This document shows, in pieces, positions 1,081 through 34,823 of a DNA stretch of 34,823 nt; the stretch's first letter is position 1; every line of letters begins with the position of its first letter. The stretch is from the UHGV virus genome UHGV-0362719. One strand, given 5' to 3'. The notes beneath the pieces were generated by a model. That model did no database searches and was not told the DNA's origin. It was given only the letters and a program-made list of their open reading frames with translations. This stretch comes from a virus. The position numbers and the translations under genes were made by a program.

Positions 1081-2094
1081 TTACTCTACTGTGGACACTG
1101 TGTGGACACTCTCGGCCTCAGTACCACCTCTTAGCGGATTAAGAGAAATGGCGTCCTGAAGGTACTCTGGCGCAAAATGAGCGTAAACCATAGTTTGCTC
1201 AATCCGCGTGTGACCTAGTATCCGTTGTAGCGTGATAATACTTCCTCCATTAATCATGAAATGAGTGGCAAAGCTGTGCCTTAGTGCATGTGTGGCTTGC
1301 CCCATTGGCAAATCCGGTTTTATTGCTTTCATTGTTCGTCTGAAGCGAGGGTAATCAGCATCAGGGAATAAAAAACCTCGTTTGTTATCCGCGATCATTT
1401 TGGCAACAGCCTCTGAGATCGGGACGGTGCGTGGTTTGTTTGTTTTCGTTTTAACAAACGTGACGCGGTTATGGATGATATTTTCTGCTTTCAAACGAGC
1501 TGCTTCTCCCCAACGCGCTCCTGTACTCAGGCAAAGAATCGCAATCTTTTTGTTGTCGCCGTCAAGAGCAGCAAGCAGTAAGGCAATTTCTTCCTGCGTG
1601 AGATAGCCTGTGTCTGGTTTTTCCTCCTTAAGCCTTTTTGTCCCTCTGATAGGGTGCTCACCAAAGAATAACTCCGCTTCAATCAGGGCTGTAAACATGC
1701 CGCTAATACATGTTAAATCACGATTGATACTCGAAGGTTTAATACCCTGACTTCTTCGGGTGGCGCAGTACTGGCTGATAAGCGATTTCGTAATTTGAAA
1801 TGCGCATGGGTCATTCGTTATTTTTGTGAAGATTTCAATTTTTCCAAGATTAGATTTCCCATGCTCTTCGTGTTTACCCTTTAAATCCCACCAGATCTGT
1901 GTCAGCTCCGACAGACGTCGCTTGTCTGTTGGTTTTGATAGCCATTCTTTATTGTGGTGGTTGTACAACGTGTATTTCTCGAAAGCGACAGCTTCGCTTT
2001 TCTTATCAAACTTCCTACGGATGCGTTTTCCATTACGTCCAGTAGGGCGGATGTCCACTTCATATCGACCATCATCGAGTTTTTTGATTGCCAT
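1081..2094 (-). CDS. int: Tyrosine site-specific integrase, P2 Int-like
   Basis: 337 aa (same as P2 Int); C-terminal region contains HxLRHxxA...Y-type catalytic motifs (ATHALRHSFATHF...GHTRIEQTMVYAH); adjacent to attL. Confidence 0.95.
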   Translation of the reverse strand: MAIKKLDDGRYEVDIRPTGRNGKRIRRKFDKKSEAVAFEKYTLYNHHNKEWLSKPTDKRRLSELTQIWWDLKGKHEEHGKSNLGKIEIFTKITNDPCAFQITKSLISQYCATRRSQGIKPSSINRDLTCISGMFTALIEAELFFGEHPIRGTKRLKEEKPDTGYLTQEEIALLLAALDGDNKKIAILCLSTGARWGEAARLKAENIIHNRVTFVKTKTNKPRTVPISEAVAKMIADNKRGFLFPDADYPRFRRTMKAIKPDLPMGQATHALRHSFATHFMINGGSIITLQRILGHTRIEQTMVYAHFAPEYLQDAISLNPLRGGTEAESVHTVSTVE

Positions 2095-2209
2095 CAGAAA
2101 ACCCTCCGAGTGGTGTGTTTTTTTGCGACTACTAATCGCTTTTTTCGTGGTGGCTGAAATTTAGCCACCAATAGTAGGCACTTGTGATGAATATATTCAC
2201 GATGAATTG

Positions 2210-2509
2210 TTAACCAGTCTTTTGACCGGAGTGGGGCGACGTTGTTTCGTTTTGCCCAAAGTGTGCGAGAGCGGGCGCAATTTGCCCGGACTCAGGAGCG
2301 ATCTGATTGGTCATGAACCATAAAGTGTATTTGGTGAATTGTGGGGTCTGCAGGATGTTCATCATGACATCTGTTGGAGGTGTTGAACGACCACTTTCAT
2401 AGTAACTCAGCGTGCCATACGGAACCCCTGTTAAATCAGCAAGTTGTTGTCTGCTCAAATACTCTGATTTTCGCATTAAGACTATCTTCTCGCTTATCGT
2501 GTTTGACAT
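2210..2509 (-). CDS. C: Immunity repressor C (HTH)
   Basis: 99 aa (same as P2 C); helix-turn-helix segment LSRQQLADLTGVPYGTLSYYE; divergent from cox across a repeat-containing intergenic region. Confidence 0.85.
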   Translation of the reverse strand: MSNTISEKIVLMRKSEYLSRQQLADLTGVPYGTLSYYESGRSTPPTDVMMNILQTPQFTKYTLWFMTNQIAPESGQIAPALAHFGQNETTSPHSGQKTG

Positions 2510-2623
2510 GGTGTTTAGATCTCAATAGTATTTAGTTTAGATGTAGATTGTTTAGTGCTTGGATGTGGGCACTAAAAGGCATTATAAGACATTAAACGCA
2601 ATTCATGAGGGCTAGAGGACGAC
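2500..2623. promoter_or_regulatory. C/cox lysis-lysogeny switch region with direct-repeat operator-like motifs and a candidate rightward early promoter
   Basis: Seen: repeated TTTAGAT/TTTAGT half-sites at about 2514-2557; TTGACA at about 2503-2508 and TAGTAT 17 bp downstream. P2 C repressor is known to bind direct repeats flanking the early promoter. Exact promoter assignment is inference. Confidence 0.45.
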
Positions 2624-2899
2624 ATGAGCAAGCAAGTAACACTCATGACTGATGCGATTCCTTATCAGGAGTTCGCAAAACTAATAGGAAAATCGACAGG
2701 AGCGGTTCGTCGGATGATCGATAAAGGAAAGCTGCCTGTAATTGATATGACCGATCCACAATCAGCTTCAGGTCGTGCAGGTGAATATTGGGTATACCTT
2801 CCGGCATGGAATAACGGACTAAAACTGGCTTATGAAAGCCGACCTAAAGAGATTCGTGACGGCTGGTTGATGTGGTTAGGTCTCGGTGAACCACGTTAA
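2624..2899 (+). CDS. cox: Cox excisionase / early-promoter repressor
   Basis: 91 aa (same as P2 Cox); first gene of the rightward early operon, divergent from C. Confidence 0.8.
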   Translation: MSKQVTLMTDAIPYQEFAKLIGKSTGAVRRMIDKGKLPVIDMTDPQSASGRAGEYWVYLPAWNNGLKLAYESRPKEIRDGWLMWLGLGEPR

Positions 2900-3080
2900 G
2901 GAGAACCGTATGAATGAGCCTCGTTGTATTGCTCAGTTACTGCGTAACGAAAGCCCCAGGGCGATTGACTTCACCATCACCCACGGTAAGGGGCGTAAGG
3001 GAATCATTATCCGCACCAAAAAACAGAGTCCGTTAAAAAAGGCTCTGACCTTTCTGAAAAGCCGGAGGGTATGGAAATGA
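2886..3080 (+). CDS. Small early protein, P2 orf78-like, hypothetical
   Basis: Track ORF in the cox-B gap, overlaps cox by a few codons as in compact phage operons; no recognisable motif. Confidence 0.4.
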   Translation: MNHVKENRMNEPRCIAQLLRNESPRAIDFTITHGKGRKGIIIRTKKQSPLKKALTFLKSRRVWK

Positions 3081-3577
3081 CAGTGATGACGCTCAATCTC
3101 GTTGAAAAACAGCCAGCAGCTATGCGCCGGATAATTGGTAAGCATCTTGCCGTTCCTCGCTGGCAGGATACATGTGATTATTATAATCAGATGATGGAGC
3201 GCGAACGGCTAACAGTTTGCTTTCATGCGCAGTTAAAACAGCGTCACGCAACGATGCGTTTTGAAGAAATGAACGACGTCGAACGTGAACGACTGGTATG
3301 TGCAATTGATGAATTGCGTGGGGCATTCTCAAAACGTCGTCAGGTCGGTGCAAGTGAGTATGCATATATTAGTTTTTTAACAGTCAGTCAGCGTCGTACT
3401 TTATTTATGCATGCCGGATTGACTGAAAAAGAATTTAACCAGCCATACTGGCGAATTAATGAAGAGTCATGTTACTGGCGTGATGCTTTATTCCGTGCAT
3501 TACGTGAATTATTCAGCCTGTTTGAGTATGCACCGACAATTCTGACGTCGGTAAAACCAGAGCAATATCTGCATTAA
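3071..3577 (+). CDS. B: Replication protein B (helicase-loader-like)
   Basis: 168 aa at the P2 B position (P2 B about 166 aa); assignment by synteny and size. Confidence 0.7.
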   Translation: MEMTVMTLNLVEKQPAAMRRIIGKHLAVPRWQDTCDYYNQMMERERLTVCFHAQLKQRHATMRFEEMNDVERERLVCAIDELRGAFSKRRQVGASEYAYISFLTVSQRRTLFMHAGLTEKEFNQPYWRINEESCYWRDALFRALRELFSLFEYAPTILTSVKPEQYLH

Positions 3578-3640
3578 GTAATTAACCAGAGTTTTTAACG
3601 CACTTAATCGTGCGGGGCTTCTTTTTGCCTGGAGAAAGTT

Positions 3641-3865
3641 ATGCATACAGTTTCTGAAAATCAGTGCGGTAAATACGCATTACTGCTGCAACAGGCCAGA
3701 ACCGAAGCACAGGCCGACGCTGCGACGCGCTTTTCTTCTCATCTTGATGCCATGATTCGCCACATCACAAAGGCGGAGTTATCCCGCGTGGAGATAGTCG
3801 AGCTGCTCAGTCAGGAGTCGGAAAAATTTCACAATATCGGATTGTCTCGCGGGGAGGTGCTTTGA
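3641..3865 (+). CDS. Early hypothetical protein, P2 orf80-like
   Basis: Track ORF, position between B and A in the early operon. Confidence 0.5.
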
Positions 3866-4167
3866 TGTCCTGTTCTCGTTCAGTTGTATTACTGAATAAC
3901 GCCTTAAAAATCGCCGTTATGAAAAATGGCGATTTGTCTCTTATTCAACTTGGTCTTGATAAAGAAAAACGCGAAATAACTGAGTCTGTTATCGCGATTT
4001 ATCAGAACGAATTAAACCTCCTGTCTGATGTGGTCAATTTGCTTGTTAAACGCGCTGTGTTTCACAAGCAAATCTCCTCCGTGGATGAACTGACGAAATT
4101 AACGACAGAAATCGCCAGCTATTGCGCTGATGAATTTAAAAACCTTAACGACAAAAGGAACTGGTAA
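3862..4167 (+). CDS. Early hypothetical protein, P2 orf81-like
   Basis: Track ORF; start overlaps the previous stop (ATGA), typical translational coupling. Confidence 0.5.
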
Positions 4168-4391: not shown

Positions 4392-4663
4392 GTATTCGTA
4401 TTGAAATTGGCGAACGTTATGTCGTTACCAGTGACAGCTTTCAGTTTATTCTCCACGAGAAAAAGAGAGCTGAAAGCGGTAAAAACGCCGGTCAGGAATG
4501 GCTGGCGGTGGTTGGTTATTACCCGAAATTAAGCCAGCTCGTTTCCGGCCTGATGCATCACGATATTCTGACCGGAAGCGCAAAGTCTTTTGCTGATTTA
4601 AACGCGCAGGTTGAGCAACTCAGCAAGCGTTGTTCAGAGGCTTTTGGCTCATATGGCCGTTAA
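4388..4663 (+). CDS. Early hypothetical protein, P2 orf83-like
   Basis: Track ORF immediately upstream of and overlapping the A start. Confidence 0.5.
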   Translation: MSIRIEIGERYVVTSDSFQFILHEKKRAESGKNAGQEWLAVVGYYPKLSQLVSGLMHHDILTGSAKSFADLNAQVEQLSKRCSEAFGSYGR

Positions 4664-6923
4664 AGCCTCCGGGCGTTTTGTCCCTCCGTCAGCATTTGCC
4701 GCAGGCACCGGTGAGACGTTTACCGGTGCTTATGCATGGAACGCGCCACGCGAGGCCGTCGGGCGCGAAAGACCCCTTACACGTGACGAGATGCGTCAGG
4801 TGCAAGGTGTTTTATCCACGATTAATCGCCTGCCTTACTTTTTGCGCTCGCTGTTTACTTCACGCTATGACTACATCCGGCGCAATAAAAGCCCGGTGCA
4901 CGGGTTTTATTTCCTCACATCCACTTTTCAGCGTCGTTTATGGCCGCGCATTGAGCGTGTGAATCAGCGCCATGAAATGAACACCGACGCGTCGATGCTG
5001 TTTCTGGCTGAGCGTGACCACTATGCGCGCCTGCCGGGAATGAATGACAAGGAGCTGAAAAAGTTTGCCGCCCGTATCTCATCGCAGCTTTTCATGATGT
5101 ATGAGGAACTCAGCGATGCCTGGGTGGATGCGCATGGCGAAAAAGAATCGCTGTTTACGGATGAGGCGCAGGCTCACCTCTATGGTCATGTTGCTGGCGC
5201 TGCACGTGCTTTCAATATTTCCCCTCTCTACTGGAAAAAATACCGTAAAGGACAGATGACCACGAGGCAGGCATATTCTGCCATTGCCCGTCTGTTTAAC
5301 GATGAGTGGTGGATTAGTCAGCTTAAAGGCCAGCGTATGCGCTGGCATGAGGCGTTACTGATTGCTGTCGGGGAGGTCAATAAAGACCGTTCTCCTTATG
5401 CCAGTAAACATGCCATTCGTGATGTGCGTGCACGCCGCCAGGCAAATCTGGAATTTCTTAAATCGTGTGATCTCGAAAACAGGGAAACAGGCGAGCGCAT
5501 CGACCTTATCAGTAAGGTGATGGGCAGTATTTCTAATCCTGAAATTCGCCGGATGGAGCTGATGAACACCATTGCCGGTATTGAGCGTTACGCCGCCGCA
5601 GAAGGTGATGTGGGGATGTTTATCACGCTGACCGCGCCGTCAAAGTATCACCCGACACGTCAGGTTGGAAAAGGCGAAAGTAAAACCGTCCAGCTAAATC
5701 ACGGCTGGAACGATGAGGCATTTAATCCAAAGGATGCGCAGCGTTATCTCTGCCGTATCTGGAGCCTGATGCGCACGGCATTCAAGGATAATGATTTACA
5801 GGTCTACGGTTTGCGAGTCGTCGAGCCACACCACGACGGAACGCCGCACTGGCATATGATGCTTTTTTGTAATCCACGCCAGCGTAACCAGATTATCGAA
5901 ATCATGCGTCGCTACGCGCTCAAAGAGGATGGCGACGAAAGAGGAGCTGCGCGAAACCGTTTTCAGGCAAAACATCTTAATCGGGGCGGTGCTGCGGGGT
6001 ATATCGCGAAATACATCTCAAAAAATATCGACGGCTATGCACTGGATGGGCAGCTCGATAACGATACCGGCAGACCGCTGAAAGATACTGCCGCGGCTGT
6101 TACCGCATGGGCGTCAACGTGGCGCATTCCGCAATTTAAAACGGTTGGCCTGCCGACAATGGGGGCTTACCGTGAACTACGCAAATTGCCTCGCGGCGTC
6201 AGCATTGCTGATGAGTTTGACGAGCGCGTCGAGGCTGCACGCGCCGCCGCAGACAGTGGTGATTTTGCGCTGTATATCAGCGCGCAGGGTGGGGCAAATG
6301 TCCCGCGCGATTGTCAGACTGTCAGGGTCGCCCGTAGTCCGTCGGATGAAGTTAACGAGTACGAGGAAGAAGTCGAGAGAGTGGTCGGCATTTACGCGCC
6401 GCATCTCGGCGCGCGTCATATTCATATCACCAGAACGACGGACTGGCGCATTGTTCCGAAAGTGCCGGTCGTTGAGCCTTTGACTTTAAAAAGCGGCATC
6501 GCCGCGCCTCGGAGTCCTGTCAATAACTGTGGAAAGCTCACCGGTGGTGATACTTCGTTACCGGCTCCCACACCTTCTGAACACGCCGCAGCAGTGCTTA
6601 ATCTGGTTGATGACGGTGTTATCGAATGGAATGACACGGAGGTCGTGAGGGCGCTCAGGGGGGCATTAAAACACGACCTGAGAACACCAAATCGTCAGCA
6701 AAGAAACGGAAGCCCGTTAAAACCACATGAAATTGCACCATCGGCCCGACTGACCCGGTCGGAACGAATGCAAATCACCCGTATCCGCGTTGACCTTGCC
6801 CAGAACGGTATCAGGCCGCAGCGATGGGAGCTTGAGGTGCTGGCGCGTGGCGCGACCGTAAATTATGACGGGAAAAAATTCACGTATCCGGTCACTGATG
6901 AGTGGCCGGGGTTTGTGGATTAA
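4650..6923 (+). CDS. A: Rolling-circle replication initiator / nickase A
   Basis: Track ORF 4611-6923 (770 aa); I prefer the start MAVKASGRF at about 4650, giving about 757 aa (P2 A about 761 aa). Largest early gene, directly after the orf80-83 block. Start codon uncertain. Confidence 0.85.
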   Translation, partial: HMAVKASGRFVPPSAFAAGTGETFTGAYAWNAPREAVGRERPLTRDEMRQVQGVLSTINRLPYFLRSLFTSRYDYIRRNKSPVHGFYFLTSTFQRRLWPRIERVNQRHEMNTDASMLFLAERDHYARLPGMNDKELKKFAARISSQLFMMYEELSDAWVDAHGEKESLFTDEAQAHLYGHVAGAARAFNISPLYWKKYRKGQMTTRQAYSAIARLFNDEWWISQLKGQRMRWHEALLIAVGEVNKDRSPYASKHAIRDVRARRQANLEFLKSCDLENRETGERIDLISKVMGSISNPEIRRMELMNTIAGIERYAAAEGDVGMFITLTAPSKYHPTRQVGKGESKTVQLNHGWNDEAFNPKDAQRYLCRIWSLMRTAFKDNDLQVYGLRVVEPHHDGTPHWHMMLFCNPRQRNQIIEIMRRYALKEDGDERGAARNRFQAKHLNRGGAAGYIAKYISKNIDGYALDGQLDNDTGRPLKDTAAAVTAWASTWRIPQFKTVGLPTMGAYRELRKLPRGVSIADEFDERVEAARAAADSGDFALYISAQGGANVPRDCQTVRVARSPSDEVNEYEEEVERVVGIYAPHLGARHIHITRTTDWRIVPKVPVVEPLTLKSGIAAPRSPVNNCGKLTGGDTSLPAPTPSEHAAAVLNLVDDGVIEWNDTEVVRALRGALKHDLRTPNRQQRNGSPLKPHEIAPSARLTRSERMQITRIRVDLAQNGIRPQRWELEVLARGATVNYDGKKFTYPVTDEWPGFVD

Positions 6924-6968
6924 ACTTATTGATAAATAATGTGTCAAGATAACGCCAGGTAATTATAT

Positions 6969-7406
6969 ATGGTAAGAGTTTGCATTGATAAGAAAGGGAA
7001 TGTTATCACCGATATCTCTTTGGGAGTCGGGGATTTTGAAGATTGTTGTAGCGTAGCAGAGGAGAAGTATAATCAGGCACTTTGCAGTAATTTTGTGAGT
7101 GTGGTGGCAGTGGTGAATGACGATAATGAGAAAATAGGTTTTTGTTCATTCATCATTGAATCTACAGAGGACGCTGTAATATATCAAATCGATTATGTTT
7201 GGGTTAAGCAAAGTGAGCGGGGACAAGGGTTATCAAAATTAATGATTCCTTATGTGGCTCAAGAGCTTATTTCTATTTATAAAGACTTGCTTGGAAAGTA
7301 TTCATTTGGTGATATATGTCTTTGTGATAATTCTGTTTATATATCGGATGGAGGGGCTGTTTTTGGTCGAGGGGTAAAGGGATTCACCTTTAATGTAATT
7401 AAGTAA
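6969..7406 (+). CDS. Cargo ORF, GNAT-like acetyltransferase candidate
   Basis: 145 aa, low GC. Segment VWVKQSERGQGLSKLMI resembles the GNAT motif-A acetyl-CoA loop (R-G-x-G-h-g). Weak, by-eye call. Confidence 0.4.
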   Translation: MVRVCIDKKGNVITDISLGVGDFEDCCSVAEEKYNQALCSNFVSVVAVVNDDNEKIGFCSFIIESTEDAVIYQIDYVWVKQSERGQGLSKLMIPYVAQELISIYKDLLGKYSFGDICLCDNSVYISDGGAVFGRGVKGFTFNVIK

Positions 7407-7462
7407 TTCCGGGTGAAATGAAAAAGATATCTCAATGTTTGAGATGGAACAAATTTAAGAAA

Positions 7463-7500
7463 CTCCGCCGGTGCTGAAACTTGCTTTCAGTGCTGGCGGA
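7463..7500. terminator. Bidirectional hairpin between convergent cargo ORFs
   Basis: Seen: about 15-bp imperfect stem (CCGCCGGTGCTGAAA / TTTCAGTGCTGGCGG, three G-U wobbles) with loop CTTGC, lying between the stops of 6969-7406 (+) and 7515-7946 (-). Confidence 0.5.
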
Positions 7501-7514
7501 GGTGAAGTAAGGCG

Positions 7515-7946
7515 TTAGCTAGTTATCAGATTGACACCGAGGGTAAGCAGGTTTGTTACTGCACCGGCAATAACACCAGGTGTCCCGTCCTTCACTGCGC
7601 TGATAATCTTATCTCCCATCGTTTCATTACCGCCAAGTGCTTCGGGTTTTTTGTTGAGCACCGCGAGTGCTTTCTCGGTCAGTCGCACATCATGAAAACC
7701 GGTCTGATGGTCTGTTCCGTACAGAATATAGCCGTTTTCGCTTAAGAAAGTGAATGTGCCATCAACCACACTACGCAACTGATTCAGTGCTTTCATTTCT
7801 GGTGAGTTAAGTTGGTCAAAGTAGTCATCAGGTAACGCGGCGTTAAATTTTTTGTAGGTGATGACTTGTGGTACAGGAAAGTTATCCCATAGCACCGCAA
7901 AGATTTCTGCCGTCTGTTGGTTGAATAATTCGAGATTTTTGGACAT
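7515..7946 (-). CDS. Cargo hypothetical protein (143 aa), unknown function
   Basis: Track ORF with AAGGGA RBS about 8 nt upstream of ATG; hydrophobic Gly/Ala-rich C-terminal tail (GTPGVIAGAVTNLLTLGVNLI). No recognisable family. Confidence 0.55.
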   Translation of the reverse strand: MSKNLELFNQQTAEIFAVLWDNFPVPQVITYKKFNAALPDDYFDQLNSPEMKALNQLRSVVDGTFTFLSENGYILYGTDHQTGFHDVRLTEKALAVLNKKPEALGGNETMGDKIISAVKDGTPGVIAGAVTNLLTLGVNLITS

Positions 7947-8450
7947 GCATAGTTCCCTTTCATCAATTAAAGACCCTTATGCCGACTGGGCAAAGAGGCT
8001 AACTGTAATGGCCTCAAATAACGACCTGAGCTCACGCGAGGTGGACAGTTACACTGAAAAAATGGTTGAACAAGCCAGTAAAGATGAGCTTATGGTCGTT
8101 ATAAAATACCTGTTAAATCACATCAGAATGAGTAAATAAAATGATCTATATCAAGATGTTATCTCACATTTATGAAAGTCCGTGGACAACGATTTTTCTG
8201 CTAATTGTTGTCAGTACGTGCCTCAACAGTGTGATTGGTGCATTGCGCGGCCAGTGACAACTATAAAAATTGATCAGAACCGGCACCATGAATGCCGGTT
8301 TTTTTGTGCTTTTTCTGTGATATCCCCGTTTTTATCTGTGCATGGTTTTGCATGTGCCGGAGTTACATGTTCTGGCTGTGCGTCCGCCAGGACTGGCGTG
8401 GCTCAAAAGCGGTATTGCAACTGCATTAAAACCGCCCCATGAAGCGGGCG

Positions 8451-8469
8451 GGCGAGGCGGGGAAAGCAC
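8451..8469. promoter_or_regulatory. cos: Putative cos site (19-nt cohesive end GGCGAGGCGGGGAAAGCAC)
   Basis: Seen: exact 19-mer GGCGAGGCGGGGAAAGCAC at 8451-8469 with flanking dyad symmetry (CCGCCC...GGGCGG). Matches my recollection of the P2/P4 cohesive-end sequence, which I cannot verify here. Confidence 0.5.
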
Positions 8470-8575
8470 CGCGCGTAAGATAAACAGAAGAGCGAAGGAT
8501 TATGGTTGAGTATTTGTGTTTTTGTACATATGATAAAAAGGTGTTTACGCTTAAAAACACATCAAAGGAGATGAT

Positions 8576-9877
8576 ATGGAAAATATAAAGATTGATAAGT
8601 TTCTCACTATTCAAAAAGTTGATATTCCTCTTAAGAAAGTGAATATATTTATTGGGCCTCAGGCACAGGGGAAAAGTGTCATTGCAAAGCTAATAAAATA
8701 TTTTAAAGATTACCCTATGGATATACTACGAGCTTCAACAGAGGGTAAAACTAAAAGAGATATATTGAAGGAGCAAAAGAATAAGTTTAGTAAAATTTTC
8801 CCTCAGCAGTATTGGGCTGATGATGAGTTTTTTATTGAGTATAGTAATAAGCACTATTGGGTGCGGATTACTAATCGAAAAGATAGCAAAGGGTCATTGA
8901 AAATAACCCTTTCTGAGAATTTAACGAAGACGATTGCTAAACTTCGTTTGATTGTACGAAAGGATTTAGATGAAAATATTGAGAATTCACTTGCAGAAAG
9001 CGTTACGAGAAGACGTAAACGCGGAATTGAACATGAATTGCGAGTATGTCTTTCTCTAGGATTGTTTTCAGAACCAGAAACAAAGCTTGAAAGTGTTTTT
9101 TATATCCCCGCAGGGCGCTCTTTTTTTGCTAACTTGCAAAAAAATGTGTTTTCATTTTTATCCAGTAGTATAGAAATTGACTACTTTTTGACAGAGTTTG
9201 GTTCTCTGTATGAACAAACAAAAAAATTATTTAGCCAAGATTACATGATTAGGATGCTTAGGGGGGCTGTGCCTCAACATGTTAATAAGCTTGTGGAGGA
9301 GTTGATTTGCGGAAAATATATAACAGAAAAGGGTGAGGATTTTATTCGTCATGCTGCTAAAAAGACGAATCTTAACAACTCGAGCTCAGGGCAGCAAGAA
9401 GCGTTACCAATGGCTTTAATGTTATCCTCATGGCCGTATTTACAGTCTATGACTAGTAAGAGTTTTATTATTGAGGAGCCGGAGGCTCATCTGTTTCCTT
9501 CTGCCCAAGCAAAAGTTGTATCTTTAATAGCCTCAGCGTATAACCAAGCAGAAAGCTATTGTAGCTATACAATAACAACACATAGCCCATATATTCTAAG
9601 TGCCTTCAATAATTTGATTCAAGCAGGTAATGCATTGAAGTGTATTAAGGGCAAGAATAATGCCGATATCGAACGCTTATATAAGCTTGTTCCAGAGTCT
9701 CAAATTATTGATTTTGATGATGTGACAGCTTATATGGTTAATGCTGGGAAAGTGACGGAAATACTGGATTCCGAACTAAATATATTAGATGCGAATGAAA
9801 TAGATAGGATTTCCTCTATTTTTTCAGAGACTTTTGATGCATTGATTGATATCGAATATTCGGCTACTGTGAATTAG
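8576..9877 (+). CDS. ABC-type (OLD/SMC/RecF-like AAA_15/AAA_21-type) ATPase, candidate defence protein
   Basis: 433 aa, strong AAGGAG RBS. Seen motifs: Walker A GPQAQGKS; signature-like SSGQQ; Walker B/D-loop FIIEEPEAHLFP; H-loop TTHSP. No TOPRIM-like C-terminal domain evident. Very low GC relative to the backbone. Confidence 0.8.
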   Translation: MENIKIDKFLTIQKVDIPLKKVNIFIGPQAQGKSVIAKLIKYFKDYPMDILRASTEGKTKRDILKEQKNKFSKIFPQQYWADDEFFIEYSNKHYWVRITNRKDSKGSLKITLSENLTKTIAKLRLIVRKDLDENIENSLAESVTRRRKRGIEHELRVCLSLGLFSEPETKLESVFYIPAGRSFFANLQKNVFSFLSSSIEIDYFLTEFGSLYEQTKKLFSQDYMIRMLRGAVPQHVNKLVEELICGKYITEKGEDFIRHAAKKTNLNNSSSGQQEALPMALMLSSWPYLQSMTSKSFIIEEPEAHLFPSAQAKVVSLIASAYNQAESYCSYTITTHSPYILSAFNNLIQAGNALKCIKGKNNADIERLYKLVPESQIIDFDDVTAYMVNAGKVTEILDSELNILDANEIDRISSIFSETFDALIDIEYSATVN

Positions 9878-9885
9878 GTGATTGA

Positions 9886-10323
9886 ATGTGTAAAAATTGC
9901 AAAGGAAAAACAAAAAATAAAATCATTGTGCTATCTGATAAAGGAACGTCAACGCAATTGTCAGTCATAAATGATAATGAGTTGGAGGTTGAGCATAAGT
10001 TAATAGATGGTTGCGCTATTGTTGTTGGGGAGCGGTGTGATCATTATTTGAAGATTTATAACAATCAGGATGTTTCACATCTTTTTGTTGAACTTAAAGG
10101 AAGTGATGTTGAAAAAGCTGTTAAACAGATAGTGACAACTTTAAAGTCAGGTGTGATTAATGTAGGTGCTAAAGAAAAAAAACATGGTGCTATTGTTAGC
10201 ACTAGGAATCCGCTAAACTCAACAGAAACCAATAAGTTAAAGAAGAAAATTCTTTTGAGTGACGGAGTGAATTTGCATTTCTATAAAATGAAGGCGCAGC
10301 AAAAAATAACTTCTTTTACATGA
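9886..10323 (+). CDS. Small partner protein of the ABC ATPase (145 aa), possible nuclease-like effector
   Basis: Starts 9 bp after the ATPase stop, same strand (operon). N-terminal CKNCKGK (CxxC); possible D...ExK arrangement (ERCDHY ... LFVELKG). Nuclease assignment is inference only. Confidence 0.6.
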   Translation: MCKNCKGKTKNKIIVLSDKGTSTQLSVINDNELEVEHKLIDGCAIVVGERCDHYLKIYNNQDVSHLFVELKGSDVEKAVKQIVTTLKSGVINVGAKEKKHGAIVSTRNPLNSTETNKLKKKILLSDGVNLHFYKMKAQQKITSFT

Positions 10324-10336
10324 AGTGTTCTCTTGT

Positions 10337-10360
10337 ACAGGCATGCATTTGCATGCCTGT
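10337..10360 (+). terminator. Palindromic hairpin after the ATPase cassette
   Basis: Seen: ACAGGCATGCA-TT-TGCATGCCTGT near-perfect palindrome 14 bp after the 10323 stop, followed by a weak T-rich stretch. Confidence 0.4.
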
Positions 10361-10426
10361 CGTGTAATCTTTTACACTATATTTGTGTTGGTTCTAATCT
10401 TGTTATGTGTTTGTTTCGGTGATGGA

Positions 10427-11446
10427 TCATAATGAATAAGTTCGAAAGCGAAATACATCTTCGCCAACCCAACAGTTAATTTCTTTACATCGCTCTTGGA
10501 GGAACGTTAGCTCGTTGCGTACAAAGACTTGTGCTGCTTTTGTTACATCTCCAAATCCTCCTGTGTTGTTGGGCATCATTCCTATCATTTGGGGAGGCAC
10601 GCGATGAGCACTCATTAGATCTTCAGCACTTGCTTTTTTGATATTAAAAAAATCGTCCTTCGTTGCCACTTCACTGAGCGGGATAATTTTAATGCCGTCG
10701 GCTTTCCCCTGCGGGGCATAGAGAAACAGATTTTTAAAGTTATTGCGGCCTTTCGACTTAACCATGTTTTCGCGAAGCATTTCGATATCGTTGCGATCCT
10801 GCACGGCATCGGTGACGTACATGATGTATCCGGCATGTGCGCCATTTTCGTAATACTTGCGGCGGAACAGCGTGGCTGATTCATTCAGCCAGGCAGAGTT
10901 AAGGGCGCTGAGATACTCCGGCAGGCCGTACAGCTCCTGATTAATATCCGGCTCCAGCAGGTGAAACACGGAGCCGGGCGCGAAAGGTGTCGGCTCGTTG
11001 AAGGACGGCACCCACCAGTAAACATCCTCCTCCACGCCACGGCGGGTATATTTTGCCGGTGAGGTTTCCAGTCTGATGACCTTACCGGTGGTGCTGTAAC
11101 GCTTTTCCAGAAACGCATTACCGAATACCAGAAAATCCAGCACAAAGCGGCTGAAATCCTGCTGAGAAAGCCACGGGTGTGGGATAAACGTTGAGGCCAG
11201 AATGTTACGTTTGACGTAAATCGGTGAGCTGTGATGCACGGCAGCACGCAGGCTTTTTGCCAGACCGGTAAAGCTGACTGGTGGCTCATACCATCTGCCG
11301 TTACTGATGCACTCGACGTAATCCAGAATGTCACGGCGGTCGAGTACCGGCACCGGCTCACCAAAGGTGAATGCCTCCATTTTCGGGGCGCTGGCGGTCA
11401 TTTTTTTTGCCGCAGGTTGCGGTGTTTTCCCTTTTTTCTTGCTCAT
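10427..11446 (-). CDS. Q: Portal protein Q
   Basis: 339 aa (P2 Q about 344 aa), leftward, immediately downstream of P with overlapping stop/start; synteny. Confidence 0.9.
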   Translation of the reverse strand: MSKKKGKTPQPAAKKMTASAPKMEAFTFGEPVPVLDRRDILDYVECISNGRWYEPPVSFTGLAKSLRAAVHHSSPIYVKRNILASTFIPHPWLSQQDFSRFVLDFLVFGNAFLEKRYSTTGKVIRLETSPAKYTRRGVEEDVYWWVPSFNEPTPFAPGSVFHLLEPDINQELYGLPEYLSALNSAWLNESATLFRRKYYENGAHAGYIMYVTDAVQDRNDIEMLRENMVKSKGRNNFKNLFLYAPQGKADGIKIIPLSEVATKDDFFNIKKASAEDLMSAHRVPPQMIGMMPNNTGGFGDVTKAAQVFVRNELTFLQERCKEINCWVGEDVFRFRTYSL

Positions 11447-34669: not shown

Positions 34670-34696
34670 AAAAAATAAGCCCGTGTAAGGGAGATT
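34670..34696. repeat. attR: attR core: 27-bp direct repeat AAAAAATAAGCCCGTGTAAGGGAGATT
   Basis: Exact copy of 975-1001, located about 100 bp downstream of ogr and its terminator. Confidence 0.85.
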
Positions 34697-34823
34697 ACAC
34701 AGGCTAAGGAGGTGGTTCCTGGTACAGCTAGCATTTTATGGGTTATGTTTTTCAGCGAAACGGATGATAACCTTAATAAATGCAGCTGTATGTGATCGGT
34801 TTCTAAGAATTTTCCATCCGGGA

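Follow-up and report, generated by a model that had tools for sequence, protein, structure and literature searches.

The 145-residue partner of an OLD-type ATPase in the A-Q hotspot of a P2-like Escherichia coli prophage is very probably WonB, the nuclease effector of the WonAB abortive-infection system

What is the function of a 145-aa protein whose gene lies directly behind that of an ABC ATPase in a P2-like prophage of E. coli? The window analysed here (UHGV virus genome UHGV-0362719, 34,823 nt in all) is that prophage; the gene in question occupies positions 9886-10323 of the + strand and is separated by an 8-nt gap from the gene of a 433-aa ATPase on the same strand (8576-9877). The RefSeq labels of the two genes, 'hypothetical protein' and 'AAA family ATPase', are generic. 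The original prediction, made from the letters of the DNA, was that the small protein might be a PD-(D/E)xK-type nuclease serving as effector of the ATPase and of unusually small size; an N-terminal CxxC was pointed out alongside. The prediction carried the caution that so short a pattern could have arisen by chance. The elements of the pattern are present as they were read: the product begins MCKNCKGK, ERCDHY and LFVELKG are its residues 49-54 and 66-72, and D52 precedes E69 by 17 residues, with K71 two residues further on. The answer to which the evidence leads is that the protein is very probably WonB, which in the two-gene abortive-infection system WonAB is the nuclease and effector, and that it is carried here as cargo in a P2-like hotspot.

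The caution about chance was well placed. In 20,000 composition-preserving shuffles of the protein, the loose pattern D-x10-30-[DE]xK recurs in 75% and the stricter D-x12-22-hh[DE]xK (where h is hydrophobic) in 7.9%; the D...ExK motif by itself is not significant. (A CxxC within the first 15 residues turns up in 0.66% of the shuffles.) It is conservation that makes D...ExK more than a chance motif. A word-indexed search recovered 18 relatives, and HMMER, run exhaustively over 1.84 billion cluster representatives, recovered 424 homologues at E<=1e-3. Nearly all of these matches are 130-150 aa long, so that 145 aa, which had been taken for unusually small, is the normal size of the family; it is also within the size range of other minimal PD-(D/E)xK nucleases. 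Among 162 aligned homologues, mostly 50%-identity cluster representatives, Q81 is found in all 162, C51, E69 and K71 in 161 each, and D41 and D52 in 160 each; N29 and G72 (158 each), L70 (156), C5 and P109 (153 each) and C43 (151) are conserved further. The residues of the proposed catalytic arrangement, the Asp at the start of β2 (D52) and the (D/E)xK of β3 (E69 and K71), are thus among the best conserved in the family. The codons of the conserved, putatively catalytic core (D41, C43, C51, D52, E69, L70, K71, G72 and Q81) span positions 10006-10128 of the + strand, with D41 at 10006-10008, D52 at 10039-10041, E69 at 10090-10092, K71 at 10096-10098 and Q81 at 10126-10128. The CxxC did not hold up as a family feature: its first cysteine, C2, is present in only 16 of the 162 homologues, and because of this the alignment marks the CxxC as a lineage feature of an enterobacterial subgroup.

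An AlphaFold2 model built with a 143-sequence alignment (mean pLDDT 92.8, pTM 0.88) places these residues in a recognizable fold. Residues 1-39 form four β-strands, with no sign of the usual N-terminal helix; D52 stands at the start of a strand (53-59) that makes a hairpin with a second strand (62-70) ending in E69-L-K71, the helix that comes next (75-88) bears Q81, and a strand-helix-strand unit follows. The modeled topology is the β2-β3-α arrangement of PD-(D/E)xK enzymes minus the N-terminal helix. The fold search that had been proposed as a check returned PD-(D/E)xK nucleases as its top matches: FokI, Can2, N.BspD6I, EcoT38I, NucS, HamA, McrC, Cap4 and BamHI. Judging from this topology and from a statement in the paper that describes WonAB (Adams et al., Nat Microbiol 2025, PMC12137116), D41, D52, E69, K71 and Q81 would cluster at one site. 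FokI and the minimal PD-(D/E)xK nucleases differ from the protein modeled here in that it lacks their N-terminal helix; it has, in addition, two invariant residues of its own, a Gln on the helix after the motif and a Cys beside the presumptive catalytic Asp.

Profile searches are less generous. The query protein has no usable match in Pfam, NCBIfam, PHROGs or PDB sequences, so that a significant match to a curated family of the PD-(D/E)xK clan was not obtained: nothing in Pfam lies above threshold, and a search of PDB sequences with the 143-sequence profile was empty. Members of the family do have sub-threshold Pfam matches, to HSDR_N (9 members, best E 1.3e-4), SduA_C (5 members, 1.7e-4) and PDDEXK_9 (3 members, 2.2e-3), and also to SfsA, RE_TdeIII, DUF2726, NucS_C and NOV_C; at the level of sequence profiles, these weak matches converge on the PD-(D/E)xK clan. 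Direct comparison of the family profile with the FokI cleavage domain, using an approximate FokI sequence, was not significant (hhalign probability 0.5%, 8% identity); a short alignment of VDGC...CD with the PDG...ID of that approximate sequence is probably misleading and was left unused. The PD-(D/E)xK fold is, then, well supported, though formally inconclusive at the superfamily level because no curated profile reached significance.

The evidence on the identity of the protein is more direct. WonAB has been published as a two-gene anti-phage system encoded on the V. cholerae WASA-1 prophage, with an OLD-type ABC ATPase as WonA and, as WonB, 'a variant of the PD-(D/E)xK nuclease fold' (PMC12137116). 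Supplementary Table 4 of that paper, the entries of which are detections by the authors' MacSyFinder model, lists the exact 145-aa sequence as WonB of E. coli 2452 (NZ_CP031833.1, D0R13_RS15675) and D0R13_RS15680 as its WonA; the pair of E. coli E24377A is listed too. Both locus tags were confirmed on NZ_CP031833.1, the record with which the window agrees at 100% identity. WonAB as a system, the prediction of its nuclease fold, the catalytic lysine and the exact WonB sequence found here have all been published before. The E. coli pair is ~37-39% identical to the Vibrio proteins that have been tested. WonB aligns with V. cholerae WonB at 39% identity over 80 residues (BLASTP, E 6e-13), with D52, E69, K71 and Q81 falling opposite D53, E69, K71 and Q81, and the family profile matches V. 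cholerae WonB with an hhalign probability of 99.8% (E 2.4e-28). WonA is 37% identical to the first 399 aa of V. cholerae WonA (E 2e-74), and its K33, R181, E301 and H336 align with K34, R182, E300 and H333, the residues that were mutated in the Vibrio protein (PMC12137116).

The ATPase motifs of WonA are all intact: a Walker A motif (G27-K33-S34), IPAGR181 with the Arg of the Q-loop region, the signature SSGQQ at 270-274, the Walker B/catalytic segment FIIEE301 and the H-loop TTH336. Its assignment as WonA, the presumed sensor/activator of the pair, comes from Supplementary Table 4 of PMC12137116 and from profile matches: AAA_15 (8e-21) and AAA_21 (4.5e-9) in Pfam, and PDC-M29A (2e-31) and AriA (1.7e-25) in PADLOC. 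A match to PD-T4-4_A (about 1e-16) is partial, confined to residues 234-426 in the C-terminal half.

The two genes form a putative operon. A Shine-Dalgarno sequence for wonB, AGGTGA (9876-9881, +), read from the DNA and presumably functional, begins inside the stop codon of wonA (TAG, 9875-9877) and lies 4 nt before the wonB ATG, an arrangement that suggests translational coupling of wonA and wonB. A sigma-70-like site, TTGAGT-17-TATGAT (8506-8534, +), was found by consensus scan ~40 nt upstream of wonA; the number of such sites in the scan is not above shuffle expectation, and for this reason the promoter is a candidate only. Just past the stop codon of wonB, where this gene and the portal gene Q converge, a stem-loop at 10335-10361 (+) has a predicted RNA folding energy of -23.5 kcal/mol (z -6.0), a stability that none of 200 shuffles equalled. 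It is a probable terminator, although it has no canonical U-tract and was not called by a terminator scan. Alignment and gene order together show the E. coli protein to be a WonB orthologue carrying the family-invariant D52/E69/K71/Q81 site, encoded beside an intact WonA with which it is predicted to be co-transcribed.

Relatives of this cassette have been described under other names. One is an in-silico superfamily, the 'OLD-ABC ATPase + novel REase' operons (Krishnan, Burroughs, Iyer & Aravind, NAR 2020), which by the account of Adams et al. takes in all WonAB homologues and occurs in 0.96% of genomes (PMC12137116). The architecture of these computationally described operons is that of wonAB, and the equivalence of the two rests on the statement of Adams et al. 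In the PADLOC candidate PDC-M29 an ABC ATPase family, FAM_00005, precedes FAM_02872 (Payne et al., bioRxiv 2024, 10.1101/2024.01.29.577857); the candidate owes its nomination to 'guilt by embedding' within loci of BREX, DISARM or type I RM systems, and the available portion of the Payne et al. text assigns no function or fold to its B protein. The two PDC-M29 models match the adjacent genes of the window, A on WonA at the E value given above and B, weakly, on WonB (2.8e-4); PDC-M29B also matches 121 of 143 WonB homologues, and V. cholerae WonB at 1.2e-9. Because of these profile and homology matches and the equivalence drawn by Adams et al., PDC-M29, the 'OLD-ABC ATPase + novel REase' operons and WonAB are, on sequence criteria, one family. 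PD-T4-4 (Vassallo et al. 2022) and PDC-M47 are, like wonAB, operons of an ABC ATPase and a small nuclease, and are described as related to WonAB, from which they differ in their ATPase inserts and C-terminal extensions (PMC12137116). V. cholerae WonB has weak matches to PD-T4-4_B (0.006) and PDC-M47B (0.0014); WonB of the window has no match to PD-T4-4_B at E<1. With its B model unmatched and its A match partial, PD-T4-4 was rejected as the identity of the cassette.

PARIS (AriA/AriB), OLD, Gabija and Septu share with WonAB the plan of an OLD-type ABC ATPase sensor coupled to a nuclease effector. The effector of WonAB has a predicted PD-(D/E)xK fold, as opposed to TOPRIM/DUF4435 (AriB, OLD, GajA) or HNH (PtuB). 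PARIS was rejected despite the AriA match to WonA: the partner of WonA has no AriB, DUF4435 or TOPRIM match, and its fold is different. P2/P4 hotspots have PARIS and old among their cargo as well (PMC9122126), and PARIS is described as arresting translation through a nuclease that acts on tRNA (PMC11464382).

What WonAB does is known from V. cholerae (PMC12137116). Defence against ICP1 requires both wonA and wonB; K71A in WonB abolishes defence and toxicity, and K34A, R182A, E300A and H333A in WonA each abolish defence. Overproduced WonB is toxic only with active WonA; translation comes to a halt while genomic DNA remains intact. The WonB protein is Lon-labile, and the Vibrio system placed in E. 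coli protects against Vequintavirinae. That the target of WonB is RNA is a suggestion of Adams et al. The WASA-1 system resembles the one described here in gene order (an ATPase followed by a ~140-aa nuclease), in being prophage cargo and in an essential lysine that is numbered K71 in both; it differs in host and in residing in WASA-1 rather than in a P2-like A-Q hotspot. With the published K71A phenotype added to the conservation of the residues and of the ATPase + nuclease pair, the original proposal of a PD-(D/E)xK-type nuclease as effector of the ATPase is supported, and we infer by analogy that the E. coli system behaves like its Vibrio counterpart.

On this footing a mechanism can be sketched. 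D52, E69-x-K71 and Q81 would form a metal-dependent phosphodiesterase site, to which D41 and N29 probably bring the contribution (an acidic residue) of the missing α1 helix. WonA, by analogy with Vibrio, would act as a dimeric OLD-type ABC ATPase, binding WonB and sensing infection, and its binding and hydrolysis of ATP would license the nuclease. Active WonB would then stop translation and growth without bulk degradation of the chromosome, probably by cutting an RNA such as tRNA or rRNA; the infected cell, its translation and growth shut down, would consequently yield no phage. The abortion of infection would fall after phage DNA replication has begun. The cassette may serve the P2-like prophage by excluding competing phages.

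WonB might instead be a DNA endonuclease, restriction-like or nicking, directed at phage or host DNA in the manner of OLD, Gabija and Hachiman-type defences, a reading that we consider unlikely, yet a genuine competitor. All of the closest fold matches are DNA nucleases (FokI, N.BspD6I, EcoT38I, BamHI, NucS, HamA and McrC), but RNA-cutting PD-(D/E)xK folds are also among the matches. Folds of the latter kind are found in some CdiA-CT toxins and in Can2/Card1. The Vibrio experiments bear on both sides of the question: ICP1 DNA replication is reduced 2.7-fold and the nucleoid is strongly compacted, but genomic DNA survives WonB overproduction intact, ICP1 DNA replication starts normally, and the first measurable effect is loss of protein synthesis with mRNA stable (PMC12137116). 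For DNA cleavage it can still be said that these data rule out bulk degradation only.

A toxin-antitoxin module, in which WonB would be a constitutively active toxin sequestered by the ATPase and released on infection, is far less probable. Its attractions are an operon of two genes of which the second is small and toxic, the description of Pfam AAA_21 as 'putative AbiEii toxin, Type IV TA system', and a WonB that is Lon-labile and toxic when overproduced (PMC12137116). Against it stands the published V. cholerae genetics, by which it is largely refuted: overproduced WonB is not toxic when wonA or the whole of wonAB is deleted, nor when WonA is ATPase-dead (PMC12137116), which means that WonA is needed for toxicity and does not neutralize it. 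That the D...ExK pattern is accidental, and WonB an adaptor without catalytic activity, or else a small cysteine-containing protein that binds nucleic acid or regulates by way of its CxxC, is scarcely credible: the frequency of the loose pattern in shuffles, the want of a curated family match for WonB and the presence of three conserved cysteines speak for it, against (near-)invariance of D52, E69, K71 and Q81 over 162 divergent sequences, fold matches that are nucleases, loss of function in the K71A mutant of the V. cholerae orthologue (PMC12137116), the rarity of the CxxC among the homologues, and an active V. cholerae WonB that has neither C5 nor C43.

With WonB taken as a nuclease, its cysteines still call for comment. 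The codons of the three conserved ones, C5, C43 and C51, are at 9898-9900, 10012-10014 and 10036-10038 (+). C5 and C43 are lost together: all 5 of the 5 full-length representatives without C5 are also without C43 (Fisher 6e-5, phylogeny ignored). E. coli WonB has the family-typical C5/C43 and, in addition, the C2 of its CxxC, which completes a set of four cysteines in the P2-borne protein; V. cholerae WonB has neither feature. The pattern suggests, as far as an alignment can, that C5 and C43 are a dispensable pair (a disulfide or metal ligands) and that C51 is the one essential cysteine. A zinc finger is ruled out by the poor conservation of the CxxC; WonB has no second CxxC or CxxH, and the paired conserved CxxC of zinc-ribbon and zinc-finger proteins is absent. 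One may speculate, and we would not put it higher than that, that the cysteines make a Zn or Fe-S site, or a disulfide/redox site, that staples the N-terminal β-strands to the active-site loop, stands in for α1 and gates the nuclease. The word 'cysteine' is absent from the main text of the WonAB paper (PMC12137116), so that the conserved set, with C51 nearly invariant and C5/C43 co-lost, does not figure in its main-text discussion.

The cassette sits between the replication endonuclease gene A (4611-6923) upstream and the portal gene Q (10427-11446, - strand) downstream. The A-Q locus is variable; in P2 it is occupied by tin/old, and it has been documented as a hotspot of defence genes (PMC9122126). 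The GC content of the cassette is 34-39%, that of its flanks 52-59%. Of 5426 complete E. coli genomes, 8 share region 6900-10450 at 100% identity and 10 have the two-gene wonAB cassette; in the GenBank phage collection the cassette has no DNA match and two weak protein matches, on unannotated gut phage contigs. A GNAT acetyltransferase gene (6969-7406) and an ORF of phrog_2266 (7515-7946, - strand) lie between gene A and wonA. Together with a small ORF these genes (window 6900-8475) occur without wonAB in other E. coli at ~99.9% identity (query 1-1576), and wonAB (window 8416-10450) occurs without the GNAT/phrog_2266 module in E24377A and EP91A; the junction between the hotspot modules lies near 8416-8475. 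Such separable modules are, as read from these alignments, consistent with module swapping in P2 hotspots. In E24377A (locus L006), wonAB is intact at 99.1% identity in a degraded P2-like prophage. That prophage has truncated portal and tail tape-measure genes and an inserted IS21-family element, and ~1.1 kb between its gene A and wonA (3047-4161) is unannotated. Near the far end of the window, a CyaR/RyeE sRNA gene (34673-34758, - strand; Rfam RF00112, 100.7 bits) presumably belongs to the chromosome that flanks the prophage where it is integrated.

A search for related loci with a narrower WonB alignment returned 5 loci, and the predicted ATPase + nuclease pair is conserved from Enterobacterales to Prevotella; an ATPase + small-protein pair is found in Kosakonia as well. 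In Serratia marcescens (L008/L009, 4691-6438) a 435-aa ATPase is paired with a 145-aa WonB that is 63% identical, and the cassette stands by itself, outside any prophage, with housekeeping genes of peptide-binding and acetolactate-synthase type on its two sides, from which it follows that the wonAB pair moves as a self-contained unit. The WonB-like proteins of Prevotella (L002, 4935-5867; L003, 4893-5819) are 308-310 aa long, with an N-terminal nuclease domain, Tyr at the position of C43 and an acidic C-terminal extension of ~170 aa. At L002 a second ABC ATPase (2016-3605) flanks the pair, and the ORF downstream (5874-6755) resembles, by eye, a DNA methyltransferase of the Dam type; the surroundings have the look of a defence island. 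Two proteins have the WonB domain in other company: in one of 315 aa (P0110) a C-terminal fragment of WonA is fused to it in frame, which could be a Rosetta-stone fusion or could come from a gene call that is frameshifted or truncated, and in one of 257 aa (P0090) it follows an unrelated helical N-terminus. An 1176-aa protein with 11 'matches' (P0031) was discarded as a tandem-repeat artefact that matches only through the string GDRCDY.

The identification of the pair as WonAB gives a name, and a mechanism tested in the V. cholerae orthologue, to two genes that carry generic RefSeq labels, and it makes the PADLOC candidate PDC-M29 a member of the same family as an experimentally validated system. 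WonAB becomes one more cargo of the P2 tin/old hotspot, and the P2-borne E. coli orthologue puts the system in a convenient host. Should the cysteines of WonB form the site proposed for them and its substrate be RNA, WonB would be a new mechanistic subclass of PD-(D/E)xK RNase, and the gating of the nuclease could respond to redox or metal state during infection.
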